Part shown: piece by piece, positions 4,550 to 61,623 of the stretch
How positions within the stretch are numbered: the first letter of the stretch is position 1
Layout of the letters: the number at the start of each line of letters is the position of its first letter
Notes under the pieces: generated by a model
What the model saw: the letters and a program-made list of their open reading frames with translations, nothing else
What the model was told of the DNA's origin: nothing
Database searches by the model: none
Program-made: the position numbers and the translations under genes
Source: Dehalococcoidia bacterium
Lineage (GTDB): Bacteria > Chloroflexota > Dehalococcoidia > Lucifugimonadales > UBA1123
Reading direction: 5' to 3'
NCBI GenBank assembly: GCA_965242675.1
Contig: CBDESW010000039.1
Span: 20,122-84,121 of the forward strand
Length of the DNA stretch: 64,000 bases

Positions 4550-4685
4550 AGACAAACAAGGGAGAATGGGACGCGCCCTTCGCGCCTCTGCGCCTTTGCG
4601 TTTTGGATTTCTTGACCATTCGCGGATTTCCCGCCCGGACAATCCGCTGGCGGCCCGCGCCGTTTCATGCTATCATATCCGAGCC

Positions 4686-5396
4686 ATGATTGAAGCGGTT
4701 TTCTTCGATTTGTACGGGACGCTCGCCGGGTTCAGCCCCGGTCGTTTCGAGGTGCAGTCCCAAGCCTGCGCCGAGTTCGGCATCGAGCTGACTCCGGAGG
4801 GGGTGTTGCGCGGCTACGCGCTGGCGGACGCCTTCATGTCCGCCCAGAACGCCGCGCGCCCGCTGCGCCTGCTGGGCGCGGACGAGCGCGACGGCTTCTT
4901 CGCGGAGTACGAGCGGCGCGTTCTGAGAGGTTGCGGCGTGGAAGTTTCGCCGGAAGAGGCGGCGCGGATCTGGGCGGCGGTGCGAAGAATCCCCTACCGC
5001 ATGGAGCGTTTCGACGACGTCCTGCCGGCGATGGACATTCTCAAGCAACAAGGCTTCACGCTGGGGCTTGTGTCCAACATGAATACCCCGGCGGACGAGC
5101 TCGCGGACAGCATGGGCTTGACGCCCTATCTCGATTTGGCGGTGACTTCCGGCGAAGTGGGCGCGGAGAAGCCGCATCCGCCCATCTTCCGCGAGGCGCT
5201 GCGGCGGGCGGGCGTGGGCGCGGAAGCCGCCGTCCACGTGGGCGACCAGATTATGTCGGACGTGCGGGGCGCGGAGGGCGCCGGCGTGTCGCCCATTCTA
5301 ATCGACCGGGACGGGATGCACCCGGACTTCGCCGACTGCCCGCGCATCGAGACGCTGATGGAGCTGCCCGCCCTGCTGTCGGCGGCGGCGGTCTAG
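4686..5396 (+). CDS. HAD-superfamily hydrolase (subfamily IA-like)
   Basis: ATG at 4686 within ORF 4566..5396. N-terminal FFDLYGTL (motif I) and C-terminal VGDQIMSDV (motif IV-like). Confidence 0.75.
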   Translation: MIEAVFFDLYGTLAGFSPGRFEVQSQACAEFGIELTPEGVLRGYALADAFMSAQNAARPLRLLGADERDGFFAEYERRVLRGCGVEVSPEEAARIWAAVRRIPYRMERFDDVLPAMDILKQQGFTLGLVSNMNTPADELADSMGLTPYLDLAVTSGEVGAEKPHPPIFREALRRAGVGAEAAVHVGDQIMSDVRGAEGAGVSPILIDRDGMHPDFADCPRIETLMELPALLSAAAV

Positions 5397-5405
5397 GGCG
5401 GGCGC

Positions 5406-5660
5406 TTAGGCTTCCGCTTCCGCGCCGGCTTCGACCATCTCCGCCAGCATCATCTGGAGCGCCATTATGTGGGCGCAGGTGTCGCGCCCTATCAGGTAGT
5501 CGCAGTCGCAGTTCCACTTCCCCGCGTCGTAAGAAATGGCGTGGTCTCCGTTGTCGCCCCGAAAGAGCGCGGCGCAACTGACGAAGCTCACGCGCTCCCT
5601 CTGCAGGGCGTAGTCTTTGGCTTTCTCGACCTTTCGCTTTCTTATGAAGCTGGAGTCCAT
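5406..5660 (-). CDS. SWIM zinc-finger domain protein
   Basis: CDCDYLIGRDTCAHIMAL matches the CxC..CxH SWIM signature. Confidence 0.6.
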   Translation of the reverse strand: MDSSFIRKRKVEKAKDYALQRERVSFVSCAALFRGDNGDHAISYDAGKWNCDCDYLIGRDTCAHIMALQMMLAEMVEAGAEAEA

Positions 5661-5832
5661 GTGCGGGAGCGCCTCTCTTTCGGGAATCTTCGGCTGAAAT
5701 CCGCGGCTAAGGCGGTTGGGATGTTCGGGCGTCCGCGCCGACGCCCGAACGCGGCGAATTGTAGCGAGATTGGCGGTCGGCGGTCAACGATGGAATCGCC
5801 GCCGTCCGACCGCCGCCGCGCTCGCGCCGCCC

Positions 5833-6972
5833 TTATCCGCCCAGCGACATGAGCCGCGCCATGCGCGCCTTGTGGTAGACGTGGTCGCCCAGATAGTGCT
5901 GCAGCGTTCGGGCGCGCTTGGTGTACTGCGTCAAGCCGTATTCCAAATCCGCGCCGATGCCGGCGTGGACGTGGTGGGCGGCGTCGCATGCGCGGGGGAA
6001 GCCGAGGCTGGCGACCCGCCTTGGCGGTGGAGACGCCCACTTGCGCGTCCGACATGCCTTCGTCCAGTTGCCAGAGCGCCTCGAAGGCGGTCCACTTGGC
6101 GGAATCGGCGTCCGTGAGCGCGTCTATGACGTGGTTCTTGGACGCGCTGGAAGGTGCCGATGGGGACTCCGAAGGCGATGCGCGACTGGCTGTATTCGCG
6201 GGTCATGTCATAGACGCGCTGGGTGCCGCCCGCCATGAAGGCGCAGAGGACGGCGGTCGCCCTGTCCATGGCGGACTCGACCGCGCTCCACGCGCCCGCC
6301 GGGTCGCCGATGACGTCGGCGGCGCCCACGGAGACGTTGTTGAAGTTCACTTCGCAAGCCTTGGGCCCTATCCAGCCGTCCATGACGCGGACGGAGACGC
6401 CGGGGGCGACGCGGTCGACCGCGAACAGCCCAAGCCCGCCTTCCGCGCCCGCCGCCGTCCGCGCCACGACCAGGATGCGGTCGGCGATGTTGGCGTCCGG
6501 GATGAACAGCTTGGTGCCGTTCAGCGTGTAGCCGCCGTTTGTTCGCGGTCGCCCGGAGTTTCACCGCGCTAGGCGACCATGAGTAATCCGGCTCGGTGTA
6601 GGCGAGGGTGTAGATCTGCTGTCCGGCGGCGATGCCGGGGAGCATCGCCTGCTTCTGCTCTTCGGAGCCGGCGGCGAGAATCGCCTGCGCCGCCAGGACG
6701 GCGGACGACAGCAGCGGGCTGGGGCAGGCGTAGTTGCCCATCACTTCGGACACCACGCCCAAGTCCACCCATCCCTGCCCCAGTCCGCCGTACTCTTCCG
6801 GCACGGCGAGCGAGGGCCAGCCGAGGTCTGCCATCTGCCCCCACAGGTCGGGGTCGAAGCCGGATTCGCTGTCGTCTATCTCCAAGACGCGGGTCTTCGG
6901 CAGCTGGTCTTCCATGAACTCCCGCGCCGAAGTCTGGAGCATGGTCTGAATTTCGTTGAGGGTAAGGTCCAT
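5833..6972 (-). pseudogene. Acyl-CoA dehydrogenase-like gene with three frame breaks
   Basis: ORF pieces 6208..6972, 5931..6467 and 5642..6055, plus a tail to TAA (5835-5833), join into one ACAD-like protein (..NGGYTLNGTKLFIPDANIADRILVVART.., ..GTFQRVQ/NHVIDALTDADSAKW.., ..VASLGFPRACDAAHHVHAGIGADLEYGLTQYTKRARTLQHYLGD..). Joining requires removing 1 nt near 6538-6540, ~6138 and ~6015. Confidence 0.75.
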
Positions 6973-7128: not shown

Positions 7129-7667
7129 GCGCGCGGGGTTCGGCGGGAATCAGCCGCCGTTGCGGTCGATGTGGTTGCGGAAGGTCAGGAGCGTGTGGAG
7201 CTGCTCCGCGGTGATTTCGCCCCTCTCGTAGCGGGCGAGGATGCCGTCGACCAGCTCGCGCTCTTGGGCGCGACCTTTCTCGACGCCCTCTTGGACGCCC
7301 TCGGCATATCCCTCGTCCTTGAGTTTTTTGATTCTTCTCGGTATTAGCAGAACCACGCATCCCACCCCCTCGGCGATGATTGCGGACAGCGGCGCGCGGG
7401 GTTCGGGGGGAATCAGCCGCCGTTGCGGTCGATGTGGTTGCGGAAGGTCAGGAGCATGTGGAGCTGCTCCGCGGTGATTTCGCCCCTTTCGTAGCGGGCG
7501 AGGATGCCGTTGACCAGTTCGCGCTCTTGGGCGCGGCCCTCGGCGCGTCCTTTCTCGACGCCCTCTTGGACGCCTTCGGCGCGCCCCTCGTCCTTGAGTT
7601 TTTTGATTCTTCTCGGTATTAGCAGAACCATGTATCCCACCCCCTCGGCGATGATTGCGGACAGCAA
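7129..7667. repeat. Direct tandem duplication (~263-bp period) of the 3' third of CDS 7413..7838
   Basis: 7129-7390 and 7392-7667 are near-identical apart from a 12-nt indel. The left copy encodes only ..LSAIIAEGVG..RRIKKLKDEG..ARYERGEITAEQLHTLLTFRNHIDRNGG. Confidence 0.85.
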
Positions 7668-7838
7668 CGCCATGCCCGCCGACACCGCGAATATGGCGGC
7701 GGCGACGAACAGGCTTTCGGTTTCGGGCCAAGTCCTGAGCGGGGCGCGGAAGACCGCCGTGAGCAACGCGGTCATCAGCACGTACACGGCGTAGTATCCC
7801 GCCCAGTAGTTCGGAGCCAGCCTTTTCAGCATTTCCAT
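7413..7838 (-). CDS. Small membrane protein (about 3 TM helices plus a charged C-terminal helix)
   Basis: Internal ATG at 7838 (MEMLKRLAPNYWAGYYAVYVLM..) within the 351-aa composite ORF 7413..8468. The upstream part of that ORF is IS1 transposase read-through. Confidence 0.55.
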   Translation of the reverse strand: MEMLKRLAPNYWAGYYAVYVLMTALLTAVFRAPLRTWPETESLFVAAAIFAVSAGMALLSAIIAEGVGYMVLLIPRRIKKLKDEGRAEGVQEGVEKGRAEGRAQERELVNGILARYERGEITAEQLHMLLTFRNHIDRNGG

Positions 7839-7869
7839 TATAGCGCTTCCTTTCCGCGACGGCGTAAAT

Positions 7870-7928
7870 GGGGAATCAAACCCGTTTTTCAGCCTATTAT
7901 GCAATTTCCGGCGGGCGTTATGAAGGCC
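7870..7928. mobile_element. Relic of a related IS end (degenerate IR plus 5'-UTR-like segment)
   Basis: ggggaatcaaacccgtttttcagcctattatgcaatttccggcgggcgttatgaaggcc aligns in direct orientation with 8768-8825 of the intact IS (ggggattcaagcctgttttcagactattatacgatttccagcgagtgctatgaatacc). Confidence 0.45.
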
Positions 7929-7936
7929 GCCGCGCA

Positions 7937-8468
7937 GGTATTCATAGCACTCGCTGGTATTCATATCAGACCCTCCCTGAGCCACACCAAAGCCAGCGAA
8001 TTTGCGAGCATCTCCAGCTTTTTTGCTGTACCCGCTCGTCGCCCGACCCAGACGATTCAGCCGAGTCCGCAACTTCGTGTGAAGCCCCTCGTTCCGGTTC
8101 ACCTCGCTCCCCTTCCCCCGCTTATGGCGGTCATCGGGAAGATGCCCATACACCTCGTACCCGTCGCTCCTGTACTTCTCCGCCGCCGGCAGACGGCTCA
8201 GAAGCCGGTGGAACGTAAGCAAGTCCCGGTCCCCAACCTCGAAGTCGAACCACACGCTGCCGTCCGCCTCCTCGACCATCGCCGTCCACACCCACACCGA
8301 ACGGCGCTTCTTCCCCTTCCGAACCCTGACGTACGACCACATCTCATCGAATGAGATCACTTTCGCCTTCGGCCTTTCGGCGTCCATGCCCCGAATCGCT
8401 CTCACCGAGTGGGGAACGTCCGCCGCGGACGGGTTGCGCCGCTCGCGCTCCATGTCCATTATCGCCAT
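7937..8468 (-). CDS. insB: IS1 InsB-like DDE transposase frame (no stop codon before the IS end)
   Basis: ..KVISFDEMWSYVRVRKGKKRRSVWVWTAMVEE..DFEVGDRD..YRSDGYEVYG..NEGLHTKLRTRLNRL.. are IS1 transposase motifs. The ORF reads through the IR into flanking DNA. Confidence 0.75.
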
Positions 8469-8748
8469 CGCCTCGCGGGCTTTTTTTGACCCAGCCGTAC
8501 ACGGTGACGTAGCTCACGCCCATGGCGCGGGCGATTGCGGACACGCTCATGCCCTCCTTGTAGCAGTCGAGAGCGCGGCTGACGGTTTTCTCCGGGTGGA
8601 AATGGCGGTTGCCGTCCGGGGTGTATCGGTATTTGCACTCCCCGCAACGGTAGGTCTGCTTGCCGTAGGAATGTCCGTCCTTGGGCATCCAGTTGGAGCC
8701 GCAGTGCGGGCACCGGATGTCGTGTCGGTATGAGCGAGGGCGAGGCAT
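8344..8748 (-). CDS. insA: IS1 InsA-like protein (zinc finger + HTH); frame changes at an A7 run
   Basis: MPRPRSYRHDIRCPHCGS..YRCGECKYRY..MSVSAIARAMGVSYVTVYGWVKK. The A7 run (7 T on the + strand, ~8482-8488) sits where the InsB frame takes over. Confidence 0.75.
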   Translation of the reverse strand: MPRPRSYRHDIRCPHCGSNWMPKDGHSYGKQTYRCGECKYRYTPDGNRHFHPEKTVSRALDCYKEGMSVSAIARAMGVSYVTVYGWVKKSPRGDGDNGHGARAAQPVRGGRSPLGESDSGHGRRKAEGESDLIR

Positions 8749-8907
8749 GTTCGGAGCTCCTAAAAACGGGGATTCAAGCCTGTTTTCAGACTATTATACG
8801 ATTTCCAGCGAGTGCTATGAATACCGCCGCGCAAGCGCCTTGACCATAATCCAATCCCATATCTATAATTTCGGTTAACGCTAGACGGAAGGAACGGCAT
8901 ATCCAAG

Positions 8908-9960
8908 ATGAGCGAAACGGCGGGCGCCTCGCGGGTCGATGAGTTGGCGGCGCGGGCGCTTTCGGAGTTGGATTCGGCGGCGGATTCGCGGGCGCTGGAT
9001 GAGTGGCGCGCGGCGTTTCTCGGACGGCGCGGCGAGCTGACCGCCCTTCTGCGCGGGCTCGGCTCCCTGCCGCCGGCGGAGCGCCCCCAAGCCGGCGCCG
9101 CCGCCAACGCCGCCCGACGCGCCCTCGAGCGCGCGCTGGCGGAGCGCGAAGACGCCGTCCGCCGCGCCGAAGCGGACGCCGAGTCGGACGCGCTGGACGT
9201 CACCCTGCCCGGCTGGCCCGCCCCGCGCGGCGGACTGCACCCGACGACCCGCATCGTGCGCGAAATCTGCGCCGCCTTCGCGTCGATGGGCTTCGGCGTG
9301 GTGGAAGGGCCGGAAATCGAGCTCGACCGCTACAACTTCGAGATGCTGAACATCCCCAAAGACCACCCCGCGCGCGACATGTGGGATACGCTTTGGATAG
9401 ACCAAGAAGGCGCGGACGGCGAGCGCTCGATGCTTCTGCGGACGCACACCTCGCCGATGCAGGCGCGGATTATGGAAAGTACGCGCCCGCCGGTGCGCGT
9501 GGTCGTCCCCGGCAAGTGCTACCGCTACGAAGCCACCGACCCGCGCCACGAATGGCACTTCTACCAGATAGAGGGCTTGGCGGTGGACCGCGGAATCACC
9601 ATGGCGGACTTGAAAGGGACGCTCTACGAATTCGCGCGCCGAGTGTTCGGCGAAGACCGCCAAGTGCGATTCCGATGCGACTACTTCCCGTTCGTCGAGC
9701 CGGGGGTGGACATGTCCATAGACTGCTTCCTATGCGACGGCGGCGGCTGCCGCGTGTGCAGCCGGACGGGGTGGATAGAGATAATGGGCGCGGGCATGGT
9801 TCATCCCAAAGTGCTGTCGGGCGTGGGCTACGACCCGAACATCTACACCGGCTTCGCCTTCGGCATGGGGCCGGAGCGCATATCGATGCTCAAGCACGGC
9901 ATAGACGACATCCGCCTGTTCTACGCCAACGACCTGCGCTTTTTGAGACAGTTCGGCTAA
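8908..9960 (+). CDS. pheS: Phenylalanine--tRNA ligase alpha subunit
   Basis: 350-aa ORF with ..HPARDMWDT..LLRTHTSPMQ..GKCYRYE..FYQIEGL..FPFVEPG..GFAFGMGPERI.. class II motifs. Confidence 0.95.
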   Translation: MSETAGASRVDELAARALSELDSAADSRALDEWRAAFLGRRGELTALLRGLGSLPPAERPQAGAAANAARRALERALAEREDAVRRAEADAESDALDVTLPGWPAPRGGLHPTTRIVREICAAFASMGFGVVEGPEIELDRYNFEMLNIPKDHPARDMWDTLWIDQEGADGERSMLLRTHTSPMQARIMESTRPPVRVVVPGKCYRYEATDPRHEWHFYQIEGLAVDRGITMADLKGTLYEFARRVFGEDRQVRFRCDYFPFVEPGVDMSIDCFLCDGGGCRVCSRTGWIEIMGAGMVHPKVLSGVGYDPNIYTGFAFGMGPERISMLKHGIDDIRLFYANDLRFLRQFG

Positions 9961-52766: not shown

Positions 52767-54060
52767 GTTGCAATGGGGCCAACACCTTTCAGCGTTGAAT
52801 ACAGATTACGCCGCTACCATCAAAGGCGCGATGCTCCAACTGCAATGGGGCCAACGCCTTTCAGCGTTGGATACTCATCTTGGCGGGGGTAATCGGGTCG
52901 CAGATAACGACGCTTCAATGGGGCCAACGCCTTTCAGCGTTGGATTCAATTTCATGGAACAAGAGGTGTACCAGATTCGCTACGGACTGCAATGGGGCCA
53001 ACGCCTTTCAGCGTTGGATACTTCCAGTGCACTCAGTGCGACCTGCCGATGGGCGACGGGTGGTTGCAATGGGGCCAACGCTTTTCAGCGTTGGATACCC
53101 TGGGGCTGGCGACGGTCGGGACGGTCATGGAAGGGCTGCAATGGGGCCAACGCCTTTCAGCGTTGGATACACATTCGCAAGAGAGTCGACCGCGCTGTCT
53201 CCTCGGGTCTGCAATGGGGCCAACTCCTTTCAGCGTTGGATACTCAGCATGTACAAAATCCGACAGGTCCGCGGATTCACGCTGCAATGGGGCCAACGCC
53301 TTTCAGCGTTGGATACGTGGAGGGCGAGCTGGAATTCTGGCGCACGAACAGCGAGCTGCAATGGGGCCAACGCCTTTCAGCGTTGGATACGCCCTGGACT
53401 TGGACGGCGAAGCGCATAGCATCGTCCGCCATTCAGGTGCTGCAATGGGGCCAACGCCTTTCAGCGTTGGATACGAGAGCGCAGCTGCACATCGCGGGGA
53501 TAACCGAAAAGCTGCAATGGGGCCAACGCCTTTCAGCGTTGGATACGCCACTACGAGGCGCAATTCCGCGTCGGGTCGACTGCCGCTGCAATGGGGCCAA
53601 CGCCTTTCAGCGTTGGATACTCCTCGGGGATGGACAGGGCCCAAGCCGAATCCGCCGTGCTGCAATGGGGCCAACGCCTTTCAGCGTTGGATACTTTCAG
53701 CGTCAATCTCGAAGGCGGGCGGTGGGCGACGCTGCAATGGGGCCAACGCCTTTCAGCGTTGGATACGCATCGAGCGGGTGTGGAGCCGATTCGCCCGCCG
53801 ATACATGCTGCAATGGGGCCAACGCCTTTCAGCGTTGGATACTCCACTTCGTCCGCGAACCCCACCGCGGCGGTGGTCGCTGCAATGGGGCCAACGCCTT
53901 TCAGCGTTGGATACTTATGGAAGGCGACGCGCGGCAGCTGGCAGGGGCGGTGCTGCAATGGGGCCAACGCCTTTCAGCGTTGGATACGGGACGCGATCAG
54001 ACCCATCATTGGCGCGGTCGCGGCGCTGCAATGGGGCCAACGCCTTTCAGCGTTGGATAC
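52767..54060 (-). CRISPR. CRISPR array: 18 x 36-nt repeats, 17 spacers (36-48 nt)
   Basis: + strand consensus: GCTGCAATGGGGCCAACGCCTTTCAGCGTTGGATAC. Transcribed sense: GTATCCAACGCTGAAAGGCGTTGGCCCCATTGCAGC, with a 7-bp stem CCAACGC/GCGTTGG and 3' ATTGCAGC. Repeats 8-18 are identical. Repeats 1, 3, 5 and 7 at the left end carry internal substitutions, and repeats 1-5 and 7 vary at their first 1-3 bases. Confidence 0.97.
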
Positions 54061-54329
54061 AGTGTTTTCGCCGCGCTTTTCGCTCATTATAGCGCTTTGG
54101 GGCGGACGAATTTCGCCATTTGACGCTCGGCGGCTGGTTTTCGGACCGAATCAAGGCATTTTTTCGCCGCCCGGAGACCGTTTTCGCCCTCTTTTTTGCG
54201 AACGCGAACGCTTGGGATGTTCACCGCCGGAGCGTTCGCATCGCTGTTTTGGCGATTGCGTGGGTTTCCCGCGCGCTTGGCGCGGCGGGGGATATTCGGC
54301 TGTGAAATCTGCGTCCGGCGGCTGTCGCA
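54061..54329 (-). promoter_or_regulatory. Putative CRISPR leader, with a TATAAT box at 54091-54086 about 25 nt upstream of the first repeat
   Basis: Lies between the last cas gene and the non-degenerate end of the array. The minus strand reads ..aaagcgcTATAATgagcgaaaagcgcggcgaaaacact|GTATCC.. Several A/T runs. No convincing -35. Confidence 0.45.
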
Positions 54330-55607
54330 TCACAGGGTTAGCGTCATCGGGGGCCAGCGGGGGATTTCGGATTCCTCGACGTCCAGAACCTCCAGCGCGG
54401 CTTGCCGGAAATTTTCGAACGTTCTTTGGGACACCGGTATCAAGCCGTGCGCCAGCAACGATTCGTTTCGCGCGGTCAGATGCTTCTTGAGCAGGTCGTA
54501 TTTCGCGCCCTGTTCGCGCAGGCTTTCGTATTCGCTGAACTGCAGGGCGGCGTAGAGGTTTTGGACGCCGAGCAGGAAGATTCCGTTTTCGTCCGGGTCG
54601 CCGAACATGGCTTTGGCGTCCGCGCGGCGGTTGGCGGGGAAGTCGTCCGGGCTTATCTTGCCCAGCTCCGCGCCGAAGGCGGCGCGCGCCAGTTGCTGGC
54701 CTCTCAGCTCCACCGCTCGGTACAGCCTGCCGGTGGCGTCGTCGTAGCGCGACTGCGCGGCGCGGCGCTCGGCGTTCGCCAGCAACTCCAGCAACGTCTC
54801 GCGCCCCGGCGTCTTGGGCGTCTTGACGTTCGCGTTTATTTGGTCGGCGGCTTTGAGCCATCCGCCGGACAACTCCGCCAGGCTTTCGAACGCGGCGCGG
54901 TCGAGCGTGTACTCCAGCACGGTGCGGGCGCGACCGAATGTGTTGACCGCGTCCCGAAAACTGAACGAGTCCGCTTTGCCGAGCGCTTCGGCTAGGCGCG
55001 CGAATCCCCTTATCTTGTTCTTATGCTCCGGGTCGCACTTGTTCGCCGCTTCGTCCAGAATGTCGGCGGCGGCGTCCGCGTGATAGCCGGACAGCAGGTC
55101 GTTGGCGCGCTCCAAGTCGCGGGCGGCGTACTGGTTCCACGGGTTTTGAGACGGTATCACCGCTTCCGTTCCGTCCAAGACGACCCCAAGCCCGCCCTTG
55201 TCTCGCCGCTCGCCGCCCACGTAGGTGAACGCGCTGAACCGCTCCACGCCCGCCAAGACGAGCGCCGCCGACATGGTTTTCGTGCCGCCGGTGTAGTCGA
55301 CATAGACCGATTCCGCCGCCATCCCGACGCTGCCGAGCCACTCGCGCATCGCGTCCCGCATCTCGCGGTAGCAGTCGCCGATGCTCTCGTAGTCGGTCAA
55401 CGTCAGCGTCTGGCACTGCGGGATGTAGTCCAGGGCGGGCAGAATCTCGTTCTCGATCAGCGGTTTCGTGCCTTCCGACGCCGCGAACAGGATGAAGTCC
55501 GGCTTCCGCCGCGCTATGGCTTTGATGACGGGCGCGGGCGTTCCCCCGACGCTAATCACCAGCCCTCTTTTCAGTCCGTCGGTCATGAGTATTTTTCCTT
55601 TTCCCAA
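54330..55607 (-). CDS. CARF-HEPN ancillary effector (Cas02710/Csm6-Csx1-like)
   Basis: N-terminal ..LVISVGGTPAPV..YVDYTGGTKTMSAAL.. (CARF). C-terminal ..LTARNESLLAHG.. (R-x6-H HEPN motif). The alternative start ATG 55586 overlaps the csm4 stop (ATGA). Confidence 0.75.
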   Translation of the reverse strand: MGKGKILMTDGLKRGLVISVGGTPAPVIKAIARRKPDFILFAASEGTKPLIENEILPALDYIPQCQTLTLTDYESIGDCYREMRDAMREWLGSVGMAAESVYVDYTGGTKTMSAALVLAGVERFSAFTYVGGERRDKGGLGVVLDGTEAVIPSQNPWNQYAARDLERANDLLSGYHADAAADILDEAANKCDPEHKNKIRGFARLAEALGKADSFSFRDAVNTFGRARTVLEYTLDRAAFESLAELSGGWLKAADQINANVKTPKTPGRETLLELLANAERRAAQSRYDDATGRLYRAVELRGQQLARAAFGAELGKISPDDFPANRRADAKAMFGDPDENGIFLLGVQNLYAALQFSEYESLREQGAKYDLLKKHLTARNESLLAHGLIPVSQRTFENFRQAALEVLDVEESEIPRWPPMTLTL

Positions 55608-56542
55608 ATCATCGGCAGGGCGAGCGCGAAGGCGGGTTGGAGCGGGCGGACGTCCATTTCGGCGAGGCGGCGGCGGTCGCCCTCGCTCAGCAACCGTTCG
55701 GGTTCGATGGCGGTTCCGTAGAACGGTCGCGGAGCGCCGCCGACGTGGAAGCAGGCGCCGGGTTCGAGCATCGCCTGCGGACGCTTGAAAATCGCAGCCG
55801 ATTGGAACTCCGGCGCCATCTTGCCGTACTTGACGAACGTGCGCCAGCAGCCTTCGGTGGGGTCGGAAGGCGCGGGCTGGTAGGTCGAGAGCGAAACGAA
55901 GGCGTCCGCGCCGGGGACGTCGTCCAAATCCGGGCGCGGCTTCGGGTCGCCGTCCAAATCGAACGCGCCGTATCCGCTGGTCGCCCGCGCGCCGTATCCG
56001 GTTCGCCCCAGCGTCTCGAGCGCCTCAAGCAAGACCGCCAAGCCGTCGGAGGCGGCGCGGGCGTAAACCGTCAGCCGCCCGTCCGCGTCGTCCAGCTCCG
56101 AGTAGCGGACTTCGAACAAGCCGTCCGATTCGGCGGCGGAGTCGGTGAGGCGCGAGATCGAGTTTCGCATCCGAACGCCGTCGCGCGTGGACGCTATCGG
56201 CGCGTCGCCGTTCTTGGGCAACGGCGGCTTGCGTCCGCTCTGCGTCTCGCGGAAGGCGCCGGCGGAGAGCAGGCGCGTCTTCTTCACCGCCTTGCGCGCG
56301 CTCGGCTGCCAGTCCATGAGCGGCAGAATGGCGGGCGCGGGCAGGGCGTCGCCGGGGAAGGCGTCCGAGAGGACGAACGGCGGCTCGCCGGCGCGCCACG
56401 GGTCGAGGAAGTCGCGCCGCAGGGCGTCCGCGCCGCGCGAGCGCGCCCAAGTCGCCGCCAGCGCGCCGAGCAGCGAATCCGCCCGCCACGCCGTGACCCA
56501 CGCCCCGACCGGCTTCAGCGCTATTGCGACCAGATTGTCCAC
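55583..56542 (-). CDS. csm4: Type III RAMP, Csm4 (Cas5-group) like
   Basis: ..RADSLLGALAATW..PPFVLSDAFP..LGRTGYGARATSGYGAF.. (G-rich loop). GTG start. Confidence 0.7.
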   Translation of the reverse strand: MDNLVAIALKPVGAWVTAWRADSLLGALAATWARSRGADALRRDFLDPWRAGEPPFVLSDAFPGDALPAPAILPLMDWQPSARKAVKKTRLLSAGAFRETQSGRKPPLPKNGDAPIASTRDGVRMRNSISRLTDSAAESDGLFEVRYSELDDADGRLTVYARAASDGLAVLLEALETLGRTGYGARATSGYGAFDLDGDPKPRPDLDDVPGADAFVSLSTYQPAPSDPTEGCWRTFVKYGKMAPEFQSAAIFKRPQAMLEPGACFHVGGAPRPFYGTAIEPERLLSEGDRRRLAEMDVRPLQPAFALALPMIWEKEKYS

Positions 56543-57199
56543 GTTTCGCCATCCATCTTGAAGTCATGGAAGCTGATTTCGCCCGACCCGCGGCTGATTC
56601 CACCGCCGAGTCCGGTGCTTTGGACGAGCAGCAACCCGTCCGCGACGACCGCCTGCAGCGCCTCGCCGCCCTCGCGGGACGCGCCGCTCATGTCGTCGTA
56701 CTTGAACTTGGCGTCGTATTCGAACACCTGGAGCGCGATTTTCATGCGGAACTCCGCGCCCGCCGCCACGCGCTCATTCGAGCGCGGATGCTGTGCGGAG
56801 CCTGCGCCGGTCGATGACGTTCTCCGTCTTGTTTTCTATGCGGAAACCGCCCGCCATGCTGCCGTCGCGGACGATTATGCGGGACGGGCCGAGCTCGCTC
56901 CGCGTATTCATGTGAGCGCCGAACACGCGGCATATGGGGCAGTCCGCGCCGGCGCATCCGCACGGTCTGTCGCCCTCGCTTTCCCCATTGCGCCCGAACT
57001 TTCCTAGCTTCTTTTCGAGCTCGCCGCGCATCTTGCCCTTCAGCGAGGAGCCGGGGATGTACGGTTCGCCGTTCGCGGGGTTTTTGATTACGGGGTTGTC
57101 CGCGCCGCCGATGGCGAGCTCGTCTTGGGAGCCGCCGATGTGCAAGCCGCTCTCGCAGCGCGCGGTGAAGGTTATGTCGTGGATGCCCGTTCTTATCAT
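56521..57199 (-). CDS. csm3: Type III Cas7 RAMP Csm3, reading frame broken once (~56800-56806)
   Basis: ORF 56774..57199: ..GLHIGGSQDELAIGGADNPVIKNPANGEPYIPGSSLKGKMRGELE..CPICRVFG..ENVIDRR. It continues in ORF 56521..56769 as GSAQHPRSNERVAAGAEF..GLGGGISRGSGEISF after a 1-nt shift. Confidence 0.75.
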
Positions 57200-57217
57200 C
57201 GTTCGCGGACCTCCTTT

Positions 57218-57811
57218 CTATCCTCTGTCTCTCATGTAAGCCGCGCCGAAGCCGATGAGCGCCTCGAAGTGCGGCAGGAAGCCGCGCAGGAAGGCGTCGC
57301 CGGGGTCGTCCGACGACGCGACTCGCCGGACGTTGTCATCGATGAAGGTTTGGAACTCCGCCGGTATCTTGCCGCCGCTTTCGGCGTATTGGGCGTGATA
57401 CCGAAGGCCGTCGAACTCCGCCGCCACGCTCTGCCAGCTTTCGCCCTCCACTTGCATCCGCCGCTCGATTTCGCGGCAGTGGTTGAAGAACCGCCGCGCC
57501 TGCCCGGTGGTGAGGTTGGGATAGGCGTCCCTAGCCAGCGCCCGCGCCAAGCCGTCCATGTTCTCTTTGGACACGAAATCGGTTCGCAGGCAGAGTTTGC
57601 CGCCGTCGTCCGGCGCGAAATAGGCGTCCGGGAGTTTCGGCATGTTCACGGGTCGGCGCTCCCGCCCGCCGCCGCGATTGCCGCCGCCGCGATTGCCGCC
57701 GCGATTGCCCCGATTGGGCGGTCTAGCCATGTCGTCTCTCCTTTCCGGTTCTTCCGACTCTTCCGGCGGCACGTCGATCCCCGCCCTGCGAAAGGCGTCT
57801 CTCATCGCCAT
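57218..57811 (-). CDS. csm2: Type III small subunit Csm2 (Cas11) with an N-terminal RGG-rich extension
   Basis: ..NLTTGQARRFFNHCREIE..LRYHAQYAE..FLPHFEALIGF.. (Csm2-like), preceded by PPNRGNRGGNRGGGNRGGGRERR. Strong RBS GGAGAGGG. Confidence 0.65.
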   Translation of the reverse strand: MAMRDAFRRAGIDVPPEESEEPERRDDMARPPNRGNRGGNRGGGNRGGGRERRPVNMPKLPDAYFAPDDGGKLCLRTDFVSKENMDGLARALARDAYPNLTTGQARRFFNHCREIERRMQVEGESWQSVAAEFDGLRYHAQYAESGGKIPAEFQTFIDDNVRRVASSDDPGDAFLRGFLPHFEALIGFGAAYMRDRG

Positions 57812-57853
57812 TGTTCTACCCTCTCCAGTGTATCATCTTGTCCGATTGTCCGC

Positions 57854-59383
57854 TTATCCGCGCGTCGCCAGAAGCGCGTATCGGAGGCTTGCGGATATTT
57901 CGTTCGCGCGAATCGCGTCGCGCTCCAAAGCGAGCGCCGCTTCGGTTGACCAGCCGCGGAACTCGGCGGTTCGGCGGTTTCGGGGGACATTGCGATTCGT
58001 CTGATACGTCCATCGCGCCGCCCGCGTCGGCTCGTCGCTTTCGGCGAGGCGCAGAAGGCGGTGCAGCAGCGAGCGCGACATTCCGTCCAGTTCGCGCGTC
58101 CACCGCGCCAGTTTCTTGCCCTCGCCAATCACCAAGCCGTGATACTCCCAACTCCAGATGGATTCCAGCGCCGCGCAGCCGTTCTTGCCATCCCGCGCCT
58201 TCGCCTTCGTCTCCAGCGCGTCCGCCCGCTCCGCGGCGTGGCGAACGGGCAGGCGGTACGGGAACAGCGCGATTCCGGCGCTCAGGGTCAGCGGGGCGCT
58301 GATGGTCGGGGGCGCGTATTTGCGCGCCGGACCGTCCTCGAACGCGCTCGCCAGTTCCCCCGCGAAATCAAGCGTCTTGTCCCAGGGACCTATCAGAAGC
58401 AGGTCGTCGCCGCCCGCGTAGATGGTGTAGATGGAGCGCCAAGATTCGGCGAGCATGTCCTGAACCGTCTCGGCGAAGAACGCATGCAGGTCGCGGCTGA
58501 ACGCCTTGAGCGTCGCGAGGGACGGGTCGGCGGCGGCGATTTCGCCGACTCGGACGCCCATGTCGTCCACATCCGCCTTGAGGGCGGCTAGGCGCTTGTC
58601 GCCGGCGGCTTGCTGGGCGATTTCCTCGAAAGTCAGCGGTTCGCGTCCATTGTCGGAGCGCGGTATCCATCGCCCGGCGCGGAAGGCGTCGGGCGTCCCC
58701 GCGTCCGCCGCGCCGAAAGTCGCGCCCAGCGCCTCGATGCGGAATCCGCCGCCGCGCGCGCCGCCGCCGGATGGTTCGCCGCCGGGTTCCAGGACGCGCA
58801 TCCACTCCAAGCCCGTCAGCCGCTCGCCCAGGTCGCGCGCCTTTAGGCAGGCGGCGCAGTGCAACTCGCCGCTATCCGCGTCGCCGTCCGCGTCTTGGAC
58901 GCGCCGCTGACCGGGGGCTTGTCCGCAGACTTCGCATGGGTCTCCGAGCGGGGGCAGGCTCATGCGCTCGGCGCTCCACGCGCCGCCGTTTTGGAGCGAG
59001 GAGAGCGCGGGGCGCCGCTTGCGCCTCTCCAGCCGCGCGCGGGCGTCTTCCGGCGTCTCGCCCCAGACCAGCGACGCCTGAACGCCGCCGCCCGTCTCGT
59101 CCCAGACCATGCGCTGCAGGTCGGCGTTCAGCTCATCGACGGCGCGCCTGTCCGCGTCGCCGTCCGCCCGCGCCAGAAAGCCGCCGCCGCCTCGGATGAG
59201 AACGTCGTCCTCCGAAATCGCCAGCCGCTCTTTCGCTTTGGCGAGCGCGGCGCACTCGAACAGTTCAAGCAGAAAAGACCTCGCGCGCAACCGCTTCGCC
59301 TGCGCGCCGCCGGCGCTTTTGACGCCCAGCACATAATCCTGTATGCCCGAAAAGTCGCCCGCGAGATAGATGGGTTCGCTCAT
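57854..59383 (-). CDS. cas10: Cas10 (Csm1-like) lacking the N-terminal HD domain; cyclase GGDD intact
   Basis: Starts MSEPIYLAGDFSGIQDYVLGVKSAGGAQAKRLRARSFLLE (start of Palm1 in other Cas10s). CEVCG..CAAC zinc finger and IYAGGDDLLLIG. Only 509 aa. The start overlaps the upstream stop (ATGA). Confidence 0.8.
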   Translation of the reverse strand: MSEPIYLAGDFSGIQDYVLGVKSAGGAQAKRLRARSFLLELFECAALAKAKERLAISEDDVLIRGGGGFLARADGDADRRAVDELNADLQRMVWDETGGGVQASLVWGETPEDARARLERRKRRPALSSLQNGGAWSAERMSLPPLGDPCEVCGQAPGQRRVQDADGDADSGELHCAACLKARDLGERLTGLEWMRVLEPGGEPSGGGARGGGFRIEALGATFGAADAGTPDAFRAGRWIPRSDNGREPLTFEEIAQQAAGDKRLAALKADVDDMGVRVGEIAAADPSLATLKAFSRDLHAFFAETVQDMLAESWRSIYTIYAGGDDLLLIGPWDKTLDFAGELASAFEDGPARKYAPPTISAPLTLSAGIALFPYRLPVRHAAERADALETKAKARDGKNGCAALESIWSWEYHGLVIGEGKKLARWTRELDGMSRSLLHRLLRLAESDEPTRAARWTYQTNRNVPRNRRTAEFRGWSTEAALALERDAIRANEISASLRYALLATRG

Positions 59384-60243
59384 GCTTCTTCCTTTTCCCG
59401 GATTCCGCAGGCTGACTGCGGCGAAACTTCTTTTTGCCGGTCGTCGTCCGTCTGAGGCGTGAACAAGCCAAGCCCGTAGTGGCAGGCGAAGCCGAGCGCG
59501 ACGGGTCCGGCGACGGGTTTATCGAATTCCACGCTGAAATTGAACGCGCCGCCGCCGTTGGAGCCTTTGCGCCGGTATCGGAAGAAGTCGAACGGTCGGA
59601 ATCCCGCGAAATCGCCCGCCGGCGCGATGGGGGCGATGGGCTTGCGGACGTCGGCGAACTCGGCGCTTATCAGCCGCGCGTCGGGGAATCGGCGGTTGGC
59701 TTCGCGCGTTATCTGCTCTTTCGCGCCGTCCACCAATTGGCGGCGTCCGTCGGCGTCTTTCGGACCGCGCAACTTGGCGTGGCGCGGGGGGACGTAAGGG
59801 GACGCCGACCGCCAGCGCGCGGCGCGTCCGAACGGCGGGGATTCCGCCGCGAAATCCTCCGCCCGCCCGCTCGCCAGATGCGTCAGCCGCGCCGGTTCGC
59901 GCCCGCGTCCGGGGTTCAGCTCGCGCAGGGATTCCACCGCCGCCAGATCGTCCGCCTCGAAGCCGAACGGCGTCCAGACGGTCAGACGGTCAATATCGCC
60001 GTCGCCGTCCTCGTCGGTGGGCAGATAGAAGGCGTGTCTGTGTCCGGTCAACGGCTTGCCGTCGGCGTCTTTGCCGGAGAGGGTCGGGGAAGGCGCGCCG
60101 CCGTTCATGCGTCCGAAGCGCGCCATCGCCGCCGTCCGCGCCAGGTCGCCCCACCGCGCCGCGTCCGCCAACGCGGGCGGGACGCCGCTCCGCAAAGCGA
60201 ACCGAACCGCCGTCGGCTTGGCGCGGTCGTTGGGAACGTCCAT
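59380..60243 (-). CDS. RAMP-like protein resembling the C-terminal (Cas6-like) portion of type I-G/I-U Csb2 (GSU0054 family)
   Basis: ..LSGKDADGKPLTGHRHAFYLPTDEDGDGDIDRLTVWTP..S.SPYVPPRH..FFRYRRK..FSVEF..GPVALGFACHYGLGLF.. From memory this is the Csb2 pattern. The N-terminal GRYHA..EWPPSP half of full-length Csb2 is absent. Confidence 0.5.
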   Translation of the reverse strand: MDVPNDRAKPTAVRFALRSGVPPALADAARWGDLARTAAMARFGRMNGGAPSPTLSGKDADGKPLTGHRHAFYLPTDEDGDGDIDRLTVWTPFGFEADDLAAVESLRELNPGRGREPARLTHLASGRAEDFAAESPPFGRAARWRSASPYVPPRHAKLRGPKDADGRRQLVDGAKEQITREANRRFPDARLISAEFADVRKPIAPIAPAGDFAGFRPFDFFRYRRKGSNGGGAFNFSVEFDKPVAGPVALGFACHYGLGLFTPQTDDDRQKEVSPQSACGIREKEEA

Positions 60244-60420
60244 CGCGGAACCTCTCTTTATATATATGCGGCGCTTCGCGGAATTAGCCTATCAAGGGCA
60301 TTGTATGATGGATTGGCGGAAGGCGCAAGTTTTGGAGCAAATCAAGCGCGGCTTGTCGCATAACGCCGCCCCAATCCGCTATCATTCACGGCGAACGCAT
60401 ATCACAGGAAAGACACTCAC

Positions 60421-61623
60421 ATGACCACTGCGACAACCCTGCCGGACGCGCGGGGCAGATTCGGCGAGTTCGGCGGGATGTTCGTCCCCGAGACGCTCAT
60501 GGGGGCGATTGGCGAGCTGGAATCCGAGTACCGCGCGGCAAGGGCGGACGGCGGGTTCCGAGACGCGCTCGAATCGCTGGCGCGGGACTACGTCGGGCGT
60601 CCGACGGCGCTCTACTACGCCGAGAACCTGACGCGCGAGCTGGGCGGGGCGCGCATCTTCATCAAGCGCGAAGACTTGGCGCACACGGGGGCGCATAAAA
60701 TCAACAACGCGCTGGGGCAGGGGCTGCTCGCCCAGCGCATGGGCAAGCGCCGCGTCATCGCCGAAACCGGCGCGGGGCAGCACGGCGTCGCAACCGCCAC
60801 CGTCTGCTCCACGCTGGGGCAGGATTGCGTGGTTTACATGGGCGAAGAGGATATAAAGCGCCAGTCGCTCAATGTGTTCAGGATGCGGTTGCTGGGCGCG
60901 GAAGTGCGCTCGGTGACCAGCGGCAGCCGAACGCTCAAAGACGCCATCAACGAAGCGATACGCGACTGGGTGACGAACGTCGAGACCACGCATTACCTCA
61001 TCGGCAGCGTCGTGGGCCCCCATCCGTATCCGATGATTGTGCGCGATTTCCAGGCGGTGATAGGGCGCGAGGCGCGGGCGCAGATTCTGGCGGCGACGGG
61101 GCGGCTTCCCGATTACGCCGTCGCCTGCGTGGGCGGCGGGTCTAACGCCATGGGGCTGTTCTACGAATTCATCGGCGACCCGGATGTGAAGCTGGTCGGC
61201 GTGGAAGCCGGCGGGCGCGGCATCGAAAGCGGCGAACATTCCTCCACCCTGACCGCCGGCGACGTCGGCGTCCTTCACGGTAGCATGTCGTATCTTCTGC
61301 AGGATGAAGACGGGCAAATCCGCGAGGCGCACAGCATATCAGCCGGTTTGGACTACCCCGGCGTAGGCCCTGAACACAGCTGGCTCAAGGACACCGAGCG
61401 CGCCGAGTACGCCAGCGTGACGGACGAGCAGGCGCTGGCGGGCTTCGAGCTGCTCTGCCGGACGGAGGGCATCATCCCCGCGCTGGAGCCCGCCCACGCC
61501 GTCCACTACATATCGCAGCTCGCGCCGCGATTGGGCGGCGACAAGACGATTCTGCTGTGCCTGAGCGGGCGCGGGGACAAGGATATAGACACTGTGGCGC
61601 AGGCGCTGGGGGTGGGGACATGA
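60421..61623 (+). CDS. trpB: Tryptophan synthase beta chain
   Basis: ..[48 protein letters not shown].. are canonical TrpB motifs. Confidence 0.95.

Follow-up and report, generated by a model that had tools for sequence, protein, structure and literature searches.

A stand-alone Cas6-like protein of the Csb2 family, a probable crRNA endoribonuclease, heads a III-A-like operon in a Dehalococcoidia bacterium

Gene content of the type III-A-like locus

We analyzed a 64-kb stretch of DNA from a Dehalococcoidia bacterium (assembly GCA_965242675.1, contig CBDESW010000039.1, positions 20,122 to 84,121; hereafter the window), in which a gene for a 287-amino-acid (aa) protein stands at the head of a type III CRISPR operon (Table 1). 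A preliminary description of this sequence had interpreted the gene as encoding one half of a Csb2-like protein that may serve as the CRISPR RNA (crRNA) endonuclease of the type III system. We find that the protein corresponds to Csb2's Cas6-like domain at the C-terminus, Csb2 being a Cas5-Cas6 fusion of the GSU0054 family in type I-G (formerly I-U) systems. We consider it likely that the gene, which we refer to as half-csb2, encodes a stand-alone Cas6-type endoribonuclease for precursor crRNA (pre-crRNA), that is, the Cas6 domain of I-G Csb2 without the Cas5-like N-domain.

The half-csb2 gene is the first cistron of the operon, and cas10, csm2, csm3, csm4 and a gene for a CARF-HEPN effector follow on the same strand. 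The plus-strand tetranucleotide TCAT at 59380-59383 reads ATGA on the minus strand, such that the TGA of half-csb2 overlaps the ATG of cas10, in line with the translational coupling that had been noted from the sequence. A Shine-Dalgarno-like GAGAGG lies upstream of the half-csb2 ATG, and only 177 bp separate this start codon from a divergent gene, a putative trpB. A scan of positions 53900-60500 for sigma-70 consensus promoters recognised none.

Table 1. Features of the type III-A-like locus and its surroundings in the window.
Feature	Size	Position	Strand	Evidence and remarks
Stand-alone Csb2 C-terminal (Cas6-like) protein (half-csb2)	287 aa	59380..60243	minus	ATG start; profiles, fold, conservation, selection
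cas10/csm1	509 aa	57854..59383	minus	TIGR02578, 241 bits; Pfam Cas10 palm2 and Csm1_B domains
csm2 (Cas11 small subunit)	197 aa	57218..57811	minus	TIGR01870 and PF03750, both above cutoff
csm3 (Cas7 backbone)	141 aa and 82 aa (split open reading frames)	56521..57199	minus	TIGR02582 on both pieces
csm4 (type III Cas5, binds 8-nt 5' tag)	319 aa	55583..56542	minus	TIGR01903, 73 bits; PADLOC Csm4, E 7.7e-49
CARF-HEPN effector (Csm6/Csx1-like)	425 aa	54330..55607	minus	TIGR02710, 199 bits; PF09670 Csm6 HEPN; PADLOC CARF_HEPN, E 2.7e-70
Putative CRISPR leader		54061..54329	minus	A+T-richer; TATAAT ~30 nt before first repeat
CRISPR array	18 repeats of 36 nt	52767..54060	minus	GTATCCAACGCTGAAAGGCGTTGGCCCC/ATTGCAGC; I-G architecture
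Putative trpB		60421..61623	divergent	Counterpart of the PALP-family (PF00291) gene in related locus L001

Each of the products of cas10, csm2, csm3 and csm4 scores above the cutoff of a III-A equivalog model. TIGR02578 aligns to Cas10 over profile positions 232-753 only, and the protein begins at an SGIQ motif. Because the alignment begins at model position 232, this Cas10 lacks the N-terminal HD domain, and therefore no Cas10 DNase activity is expected; the GGDD cyclase motif is retained. With NCBIfam and PADLOC we found csm5 neither in the operon of the window nor in the related III-A-like modules examined (loci from other sequences are designated here by L numbers); in the latter, CARF genes directly follow csm4.

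The canonical III-A gene order, as in M. tuberculosis or T. thermophilus, is cas6-cas10-csm2-csm3-csm4-csm5-csm6. The window operon is like subtype III-A in that its cas10, csm2, csm3, csm4 and CARF-HEPN (Csm6-like) genes match III-A profiles above their cutoffs, and differs in that Cas10 has no HD domain, csm5 is absent and modules of this kind frequently lie within I-G loci, where csb2 precedes and cas4-cas1 follows them. The same reduced set of cas10, csm2, csm3, csm4 and CARF effectors, without csm5, recurs in all related loci, and the reduced operon (54330-60243) may represent a distinct III-A-like variant.

The two csm3 reading frames of the window are separated by a single frameshift near 56800-56806 (region 56790-56815; context CGGCGCAGGC). 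A tblastn search with the intact 222-aa Csm3 of locus L001 joined the two frames at ...VIDRR/AGSAQHP... (slash at the junction). As CGGCGCAGGC is not a homopolymer, the frameshift may reflect either a sequencing error or genuine decay of the gene. The csm3 gene is likewise split, into 156 and 74 aa, in locus L004, which comes from another lineage and from a 10x long-read assembly. Neither cas1, cas2 and cas4 nor the I-G effector genes (cas3g, cas8g/csb3, cas7g/csb1) were detectable in the 64-kb window.

Assignment of the 287-aa protein to the Cas6 domain of Csb2

The 287-aa protein scored above the curated cutoff of the NCBIfam model for Csb2, TIGR02165 (63.3 bits versus a cutoff of 45; E 2.4e-17), with the alignment restricted to profile positions 249-491 of 492. 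The PADLOC model Cas56g (PDLC01778) also matched, with an E value of 2.6e-54 and an alignment spanning its positions 223-448 of 449. A search of a 5.8-billion-protein database recovered 379 homologues at E<=1e-3. Given these E values and this number of homologues, the family match does not arise by chance. Most of the best 120 of the 379 homologues are ~490 aa long and 53-60% identical to the query over its residues ~12-265, and about a dozen of the same 120 are 266-301 aa long. The closest full-length relatives align to the query from their residue ~230 on, and full-length relatives lie in canonical cas3g-cas8g-cas7g-csb2-cas4/cas1 loci in Chloroflexota and other phyla. As both Csb2 profiles are matched over their C-terminal half only, the reading of this protein as a Csb2-like half-protein holds.

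These searches also bear on whether the protein could instead be a Csm5-like RAMP, mis-scored as Csb2, that supplies the backbone or cap subunit of Cas7 type which the operon lacks, which is the outcome that the preliminary description had named as contrary to its own proposal. Such a subunit would fit a RAMP protein with a glycine-rich loop in an operon without csm5. We give this explanation next to no credence, as no Csm5, Cmr-type or Cas7 family in NCBIfam or PADLOC matches the protein, the proteins with which it shares the identity described above, over their C-terminal half, are bona fide Csb2 encoded in canonical I-G loci, and the predicted fold matches Cas6 first (see below).

In comparison to full-length Csb2, the 287-aa protein begins in the inter-domain linker, and the ~235-residue Cas5-like N-domain is absent. 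The ~490-aa relatives begin with the consensus ...NRYHAT...EWPPSPWR..., which has no counterpart here, so that the N-terminal region described earlier as GRYHA..EWPPSP is indeed missing; no open reading frame (ORF) resembling the Csb2 N-domain was found anywhere in the window. In the T. sulfidiphilus I-G system, the isolated Csb2 C-domain (R262 to end) folds, is stable, cleaves in vitro and binds the repeat hairpin more tightly than the whole protein, and the N-domain is needed for I-G Cascade assembly only (Shangguan et al., PMC9638904). The window protein shares with type I-G Csb2 the C-terminal ~255 residues (53-60% identity to Chloroflexota Csb2), the histidine of the glycine-rich loop (G-loop), the invariant GHxHxFY..DEDGDG motif and a cognate 36-nt repeat in which the stem is followed by 4 nt and then by the 8-nt tag. 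It differs in lacking the N-domain, in being encoded away from cas3g, cas8g, cas7g and cas4-cas1, and in that its gene shares a transcript with cas10 and is probably translated together with it.

The half-size form is conserved in its own right. Among 12 homologues of this size, identity ranges from 49 to 93% and core residues are invariant; pairwise ratios of nonsynonymous to synonymous substitution rates (dN/dS) are 0.14-0.41, and the half-gene is under purifying selection. A profile built from the halves matched 2360 representative clusters at E<=1e-3, and among the best 150 of these ~48, about a third, are 245-320 aa long and contain the whole domain, although some of them are possibly contig-end fragments. 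We regard it as highly improbable, given these data, that the ORF is a non-functional, truncated csb2 remnant of a decayed I-G locus with no role in the type III system. A remnant would be consistent with the lack of I-G effector genes, cas1 and cas2 in the window, with the csm3 frameshift and with the degeneration of the repeats most distant from the leader (see below), but it does not account for the conservation of the half-size form across homologues and many loci, the low dN/dS values, the frequency of half-size members among the best clusters, the Shine-Dalgarno-like sequence and ATGA overlap, or a start point in the inter-domain linker, at the boundary of the domain that is stable and active in isolation.

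We modeled the 287-aa protein with AlphaFold2, using 115 sequences. The model is confident, with a predicted local distance difference test score (pLDDT) of 88 and a predicted template modeling score (pTM) of 0.86; the succession of its secondary-structure elements agrees with two beta-alpha-beta-beta-alpha-beta units. All eight Foldseek matches in the Protein Data Bank (PDB) at E<=1e-3 are Cas6-family enzymes. The best is T. thermophilus TTHB231 (4c9d; E 1.8e-6), and the others include 5yi6, the type IV Cas6 Csf5 (6h9h), 3ufc and S. solfataricus Cas6 (4ilm); Cas6e (4dzd; E 1.5e-3) falls just below the top eight. Foldseek probabilities for the Cas6 matches are 0.94-1.00. Lower-ranked RAMP matches outside Cas6 comprise only Cas5-type subunits (Cmr3 and type I Cas5) and one gRAMP, the type III-E fusion 7xso, which is a very weak match (E 0.45). 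The I-G Cascade structures 8ANE and 8B2X contain no modelled Csb2.

Conservation across 73 diverse homologues (down to ~31% identity) singles out three histidines, H68 and H70, each present in 100% of the sequences, and H255, present in 97%. H255 is the sole conserved histidine of the C-terminal part of the protein and lies within GFACHYGLG. The G-loop GFACHYGLGLF, which had been described as terminal, is present at residues 251-261; it is near-terminal, as a non-conserved tail of 26 aa follows it. Characterized enzymes provide a point of comparison: cleavage by T. sulfidiphilus Csb2 is abolished in the H503A variant (PMC9638904), and in the 545-aa B. animalis Csb2, for which the same domain assignment was made, H520 and D530 are catalytic (bioRxiv 10.1101/2022.08.19.504415). 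H255 is located ~244 residues into the domain, a position that matches T. sulfidiphilus H503 (503 minus 261) as well as B. animalis H520. From its position within the domain, we predict that H255 is the catalytic residue of the half-protein.

The segment LSGKDADGKPLTGHRHAFYLPTDEDGDGDIDRLTVW, which the preliminary description had picked out, spans residues 55-90 of the protein. Residues 55-80 (window positions 60004-60081) form the motif SGK..G.P..GHxHxFY.P.DEDGDG, which is invariant in the family and in which the fully conserved H68 and H70 are followed by an acidic cluster. This motif looks like a candidate metal- or RNA-binding site, and the publications consulted assign it no function.

Several observations weigh against the assignment of the 287-aa protein as an active Cas6-type nuclease. 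The Foldseek TM-scores are modest (0.39-0.50, and 0.32-0.50 across the Cas6 matches with the probabilities given above), and the equivalence of H255 to the published catalytic histidines is one of position rather than of direct alignment. No Cas6 sequence model in Pfam or NCBIfam matches the protein at E<=0.1; a comparison with PF09609 and the Cas6 profiles had been suggested as a check, and the Pfam scan returned no family at this threshold, these models included. Likewise, phmmer found zero matches among PDB sequences at E<=10. B. animalis Csb2 is reported to cleave in the 5' region of its repeat, independently of the stem (bioRxiv 10.1101/2022.08.19.504415), and therefore Csb2 specificity is not uniform. 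Finally, given the csm3 frameshift and the absence of cas1 and cas2 from the 64 kb, the locus in the window may be inactive.

Repeat architecture and predicted crRNA processing

On the minus strand, which is the cas-gene strand, the repeat of the array reads GTATCCAACGCTGAAAGGCGTTGGCCCCATTGCAGC and ends in ATTGCAGC. The repeat RNA contains an 8-bp stem followed by CCCC and the 8-nt AUUGCAGC, with a hairpin energy of -12.2 kcal/mol. This succession of stem, 4 nt and 8-nt tag agrees with the earlier suggestion that the repeat end is suited to the generation of an 8-nt tag. Repeats at the cas-gene end are perfect, and those at the far end (52767-53243) carry one to three substitutions. Because the perfect repeats adjoin the cas genes and the degenerate ones lie at the far end, the leader is placed between the array and the CARF-HEPN gene, with the array read from the minus strand. 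New spacers are probably no longer supplied to the array by a local adaptation module.

The window repeat (GUAUCCAACGCUGAAAGGCGUUGGCCCC/AUUGCAGC, slash before the last 8 nt) has the same length and layout as the T. sulfidiphilus substrate (GUCAUCCGCGGCAUUUAGCCGCGGCCUC/AUUGAAGC), and its 3' half (GGCCCC/AUUGCAGC) is nearly that of the latter. In the 36-nt repeat of T. sulfidiphilus, the Csb2 cut lies 4 nt 3' to the 7-bp stem and yields an 8-nt handle (PMC9638904). From the repeat layout and this mapped site, metal-independent cleavage within the window repeat is predicted to yield an 8-nt 5' tag. Locus L001 has a repeat identical to that of the window. Wherever an array was captured with a type III locus containing half-csb2, its repeats are of the I-G type (...GGC[C/T]CCATTGAA[G/A]C) and lie on the operon strand. 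The repeats of I-G loci themselves share the architecture of the window repeat. Together, the Csb2 profiles, the Cas6-like predicted fold, the conserved H255, the repeat architecture, the purifying selection and the recurrent synteny described below support the proposal that a stand-alone Cas6-like Csb2 half would act as the crRNA endonuclease of this system.

We propose that this pathway would operate as follows. By homology, the leader would drive minus-strand transcription of the array, and the half-protein would be co-translated with the HD-less Cas10 from the reduced III-A-like operon. The half-protein would then bind the hairpin of the I-G-type repeat, and, again by homology, H255 would mediate a cut 4 nt 3' of the stem that separates C28 from A29. 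As in established type III biology, the resulting crRNAs, with the 8-nt 5' tag AUUGCAGC, would be loaded on Csm4 and Cas10 and on the Csm3/Csm2 backbone, the tag being needed by Csm4 and Cas10 for assembly and for self/non-self discrimination. Binding of target RNA would be expected to activate the GGDD cyclase, and the cyclic oligoadenylate (cOA) it makes would in turn activate the CARF-HEPN RNase.

In this role the half-protein would resemble the stand-alone Cas6 of canonical III-A systems in its operon position, its predicted double-ferredoxin fold with a glycine-rich loop and the expected crRNA with an 8-nt 5' tag. Unlike that Cas6, the 287-aa protein has no sequence match to Cas6 models and derives from an I-G fusion protein, its predicted catalytic histidine lies in the C-terminal G-loop, as in Csb2, and its predicted cut falls 4 nt past the stem, not at the stem base.

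A different function is conceivable after cleavage, in which the Cas6 half would stay on the 3' hairpin of the crRNA as the capping subunit of a Csm complex without Csm5, much as in type I Cascade, and the crRNA would not be trimmed at its 3' end. The Csb2 C-domain is known to stay on its hairpin product with high affinity (PMC9638904), neither the window nor any of the related III-A-like modules examined has a csm5 gene, CARF genes coming directly after csm4, and half-csb2 is translationally coupled to the gene for the single-copy subunit Cas10. On the other hand, half-csb2 of locus L006 is at the far end of the operon, and the half-protein also heads III-B loci that have the full Cmr1-6 set; because of the latter, the presence of half-csb2 is not tied to the loss of a cap subunit. 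On balance we think it improbable that the half-protein is a cap. A broader version, in which the short-Cas10, Csm5-less III-A-like module is an obligate partner of a Csb2-type Cas6 that remains on the untrimmed 3' hairpin and replaces Csm5, we find doubtful. If the Cas6 domain did serve as a cap, the type III complex would be built like type I Cascade at its 3' end, and the recurrent, independent fission of csb2 would mark the emancipation of the module from its I-G host locus.

Recurrence and origin of half-size csb2 in type III loci

The gene for a stand-alone pre-crRNA endoribonuclease that we propose for the window is not unique to it, as half-csb2 occurs inside type III operons, both III-A-like and III-B, at no fewer than 15 independent loci. 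Five III-A-like loci (L001, L002, L003, L004 and L006) contain half-csb2, a short cas10 (489-503 aa), csm2, csm3, csm4 and a CARF-HEPN gene, and L007 follows the same order until csm4, where the contig ends. The half-gene is first in the operon in L001, L002, L003 and L007; a CARF-HEPN gene precedes it in L004, and it comes last in L006. Further III-A-like cases came from a genome scan (L042, Planctomycetota) and, in metagenomes, from a scan begun from the short Cas10 (L066 and L075). A Csb2 C-domain also lies directly upstream of cas10 in L056, L057 and L070, where half and full length are indistinguishable because the ORFs run into the contig end. The III-B examples are L005, a cmr1-6 locus with two CARF-HEPN genes, and, from the genome scan, L011 and L016 (SAR202), L038 (Blastocatellia) and L046 (Blastocatellaceae), the last of which has an I-G locus with full-length Csb2, the half-protein and cmr genes in a row. 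The overlap between the stop codon of csb2, or of its half, and the start codon of cas10 recurs in L042 and L051.

In another set of loci, full-length csb2 directly precedes the short-cas10 module. These composite I-G/III-A-like loci (L051, from Planctomycetota PLA2, and L065, L067, L068 and L105) have the order cas3g-cas8g (or csb3)-cas7g-csb2 (full length)-[cas10-csm2-csm3-csm4-CARF]-cas4/cas1-array, with csb3-csb1-csb2 in L105. They look like evolutionary intermediates in which two effectors share a single Csb2, a single adaptation module and a single array. The frequent embedding of the III-A-like module in I-G loci after full-length csb2 lends support to the cross-type module exchange that the preliminary description had put forward. 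The placement of csb2 upstream of the short-Cas10 module has exceptions: no csb2 occurs within 6 kb in L060-L062, and in L080 and L081 the upstream genes are cas4-cas1 instead.

For the Cas6 domain we constructed an unrooted neighbour-joining tree and assessed its support with 200 bootstraps. Chloroflexota halves and full-length proteins form a clade (98%), as does an Acidobacteriota-type group that includes the half of L038 (96%), and the half of L030 pairs with the full-length protein of L022 (100%). A clade uniting every type III-linked half received 0% bootstrap support, and we reject a single origin for them; the halves group with full-length Csb2 of their own phyla. From these groupings, we conclude that half-size forms arose at least three times. 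Within Chloroflexota the change may have been fission or fusion; the halves there are paraphyletic to a full-length clade supported at 91.5%, possibly a long-branch effect in this unrooted tree. We infer that the III-A-like module lived in I-G loci downstream of csb2 and that the half-gene was left behind, more than once, by loss of the I-G effector or by duplication of the Cas6 domain.

Type III loci are often without a cas6 of their own, and their crRNA supply is usually explained by borrowing in trans. Type III systems use the Cas6 of type I systems in this way. The loci considered here show three stages of such borrowing, namely separate I-G and III loci, a III-A-like module behind csb2 in an I-G locus, and a free-standing type III operon, as in the window, which keeps only the Cas6 domain of Csb2 and an I-G-type repeat. 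For the H. ochraceum III-B system expressed in E. coli, crRNAs were processed by an I-G csb2 (Steens et al., bioRxiv 10.1101/2023.06.23.546230). We considered whether this csb2 is itself a half-protein, and it is not; the supplement of that study gives a co-occurring I-G system as its source. In both cases a Csb2-type nuclease gives (in the window, is predicted to give) a type III effector its crRNAs from I-G-type repeats; there the enzyme is a full-length Csb2 borrowed from a separate I-G locus, whereas here it would be the Cas6 domain only, encoded inside the type III operon.

In the literature, including the 2011 and 2025 classification papers, we found neither a stand-alone Csb2 Cas6 domain in type III operons nor composite I-G/III-A-like loci described. 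The ingredients are all known, as type I Cas6 acts in trans for type III systems, the lone Csb2 C-domain is active and I-G Csb2 supports III-B; this is one CRISPR type reusing a part of another and not a new kind of system. Labelling proteins of ~270 aa as type I-G Csb2 mis-types such loci, which is a reason for annotators to stop doing so. The half-protein could serve biochemical work as a naturally occurring minimal Cas6 from the I-G lineage, and the compact Cas10(ΔHD)-Csm2-Csm3-Csm4 effector without Csm5 merits structural study.

Three loci contain half-size csb2 in notable arrangements. In L046, the full-length Csb2 (7222-8763) has a serine in place of the catalytic histidine (GHSSSFGLG), and the adjacent half (8831-9640) keeps the histidine (GFGSHFGLG), a difference that points to a division of labour. 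The csb3-type I-G locus L024 (Pyrinomonadaceae) encodes a full-length GSU0054-type Csb2 (4583-6052) followed by a half-size, PDLC01778-type paralogue (6056-6904). Finally, positions 1832-10831 of L041 (Bacillota) contain genes for a III-D-like Cas7 fusion and a CARF protein together with cas3g, a small cas8g, half-csb2 and cas4-cas1.

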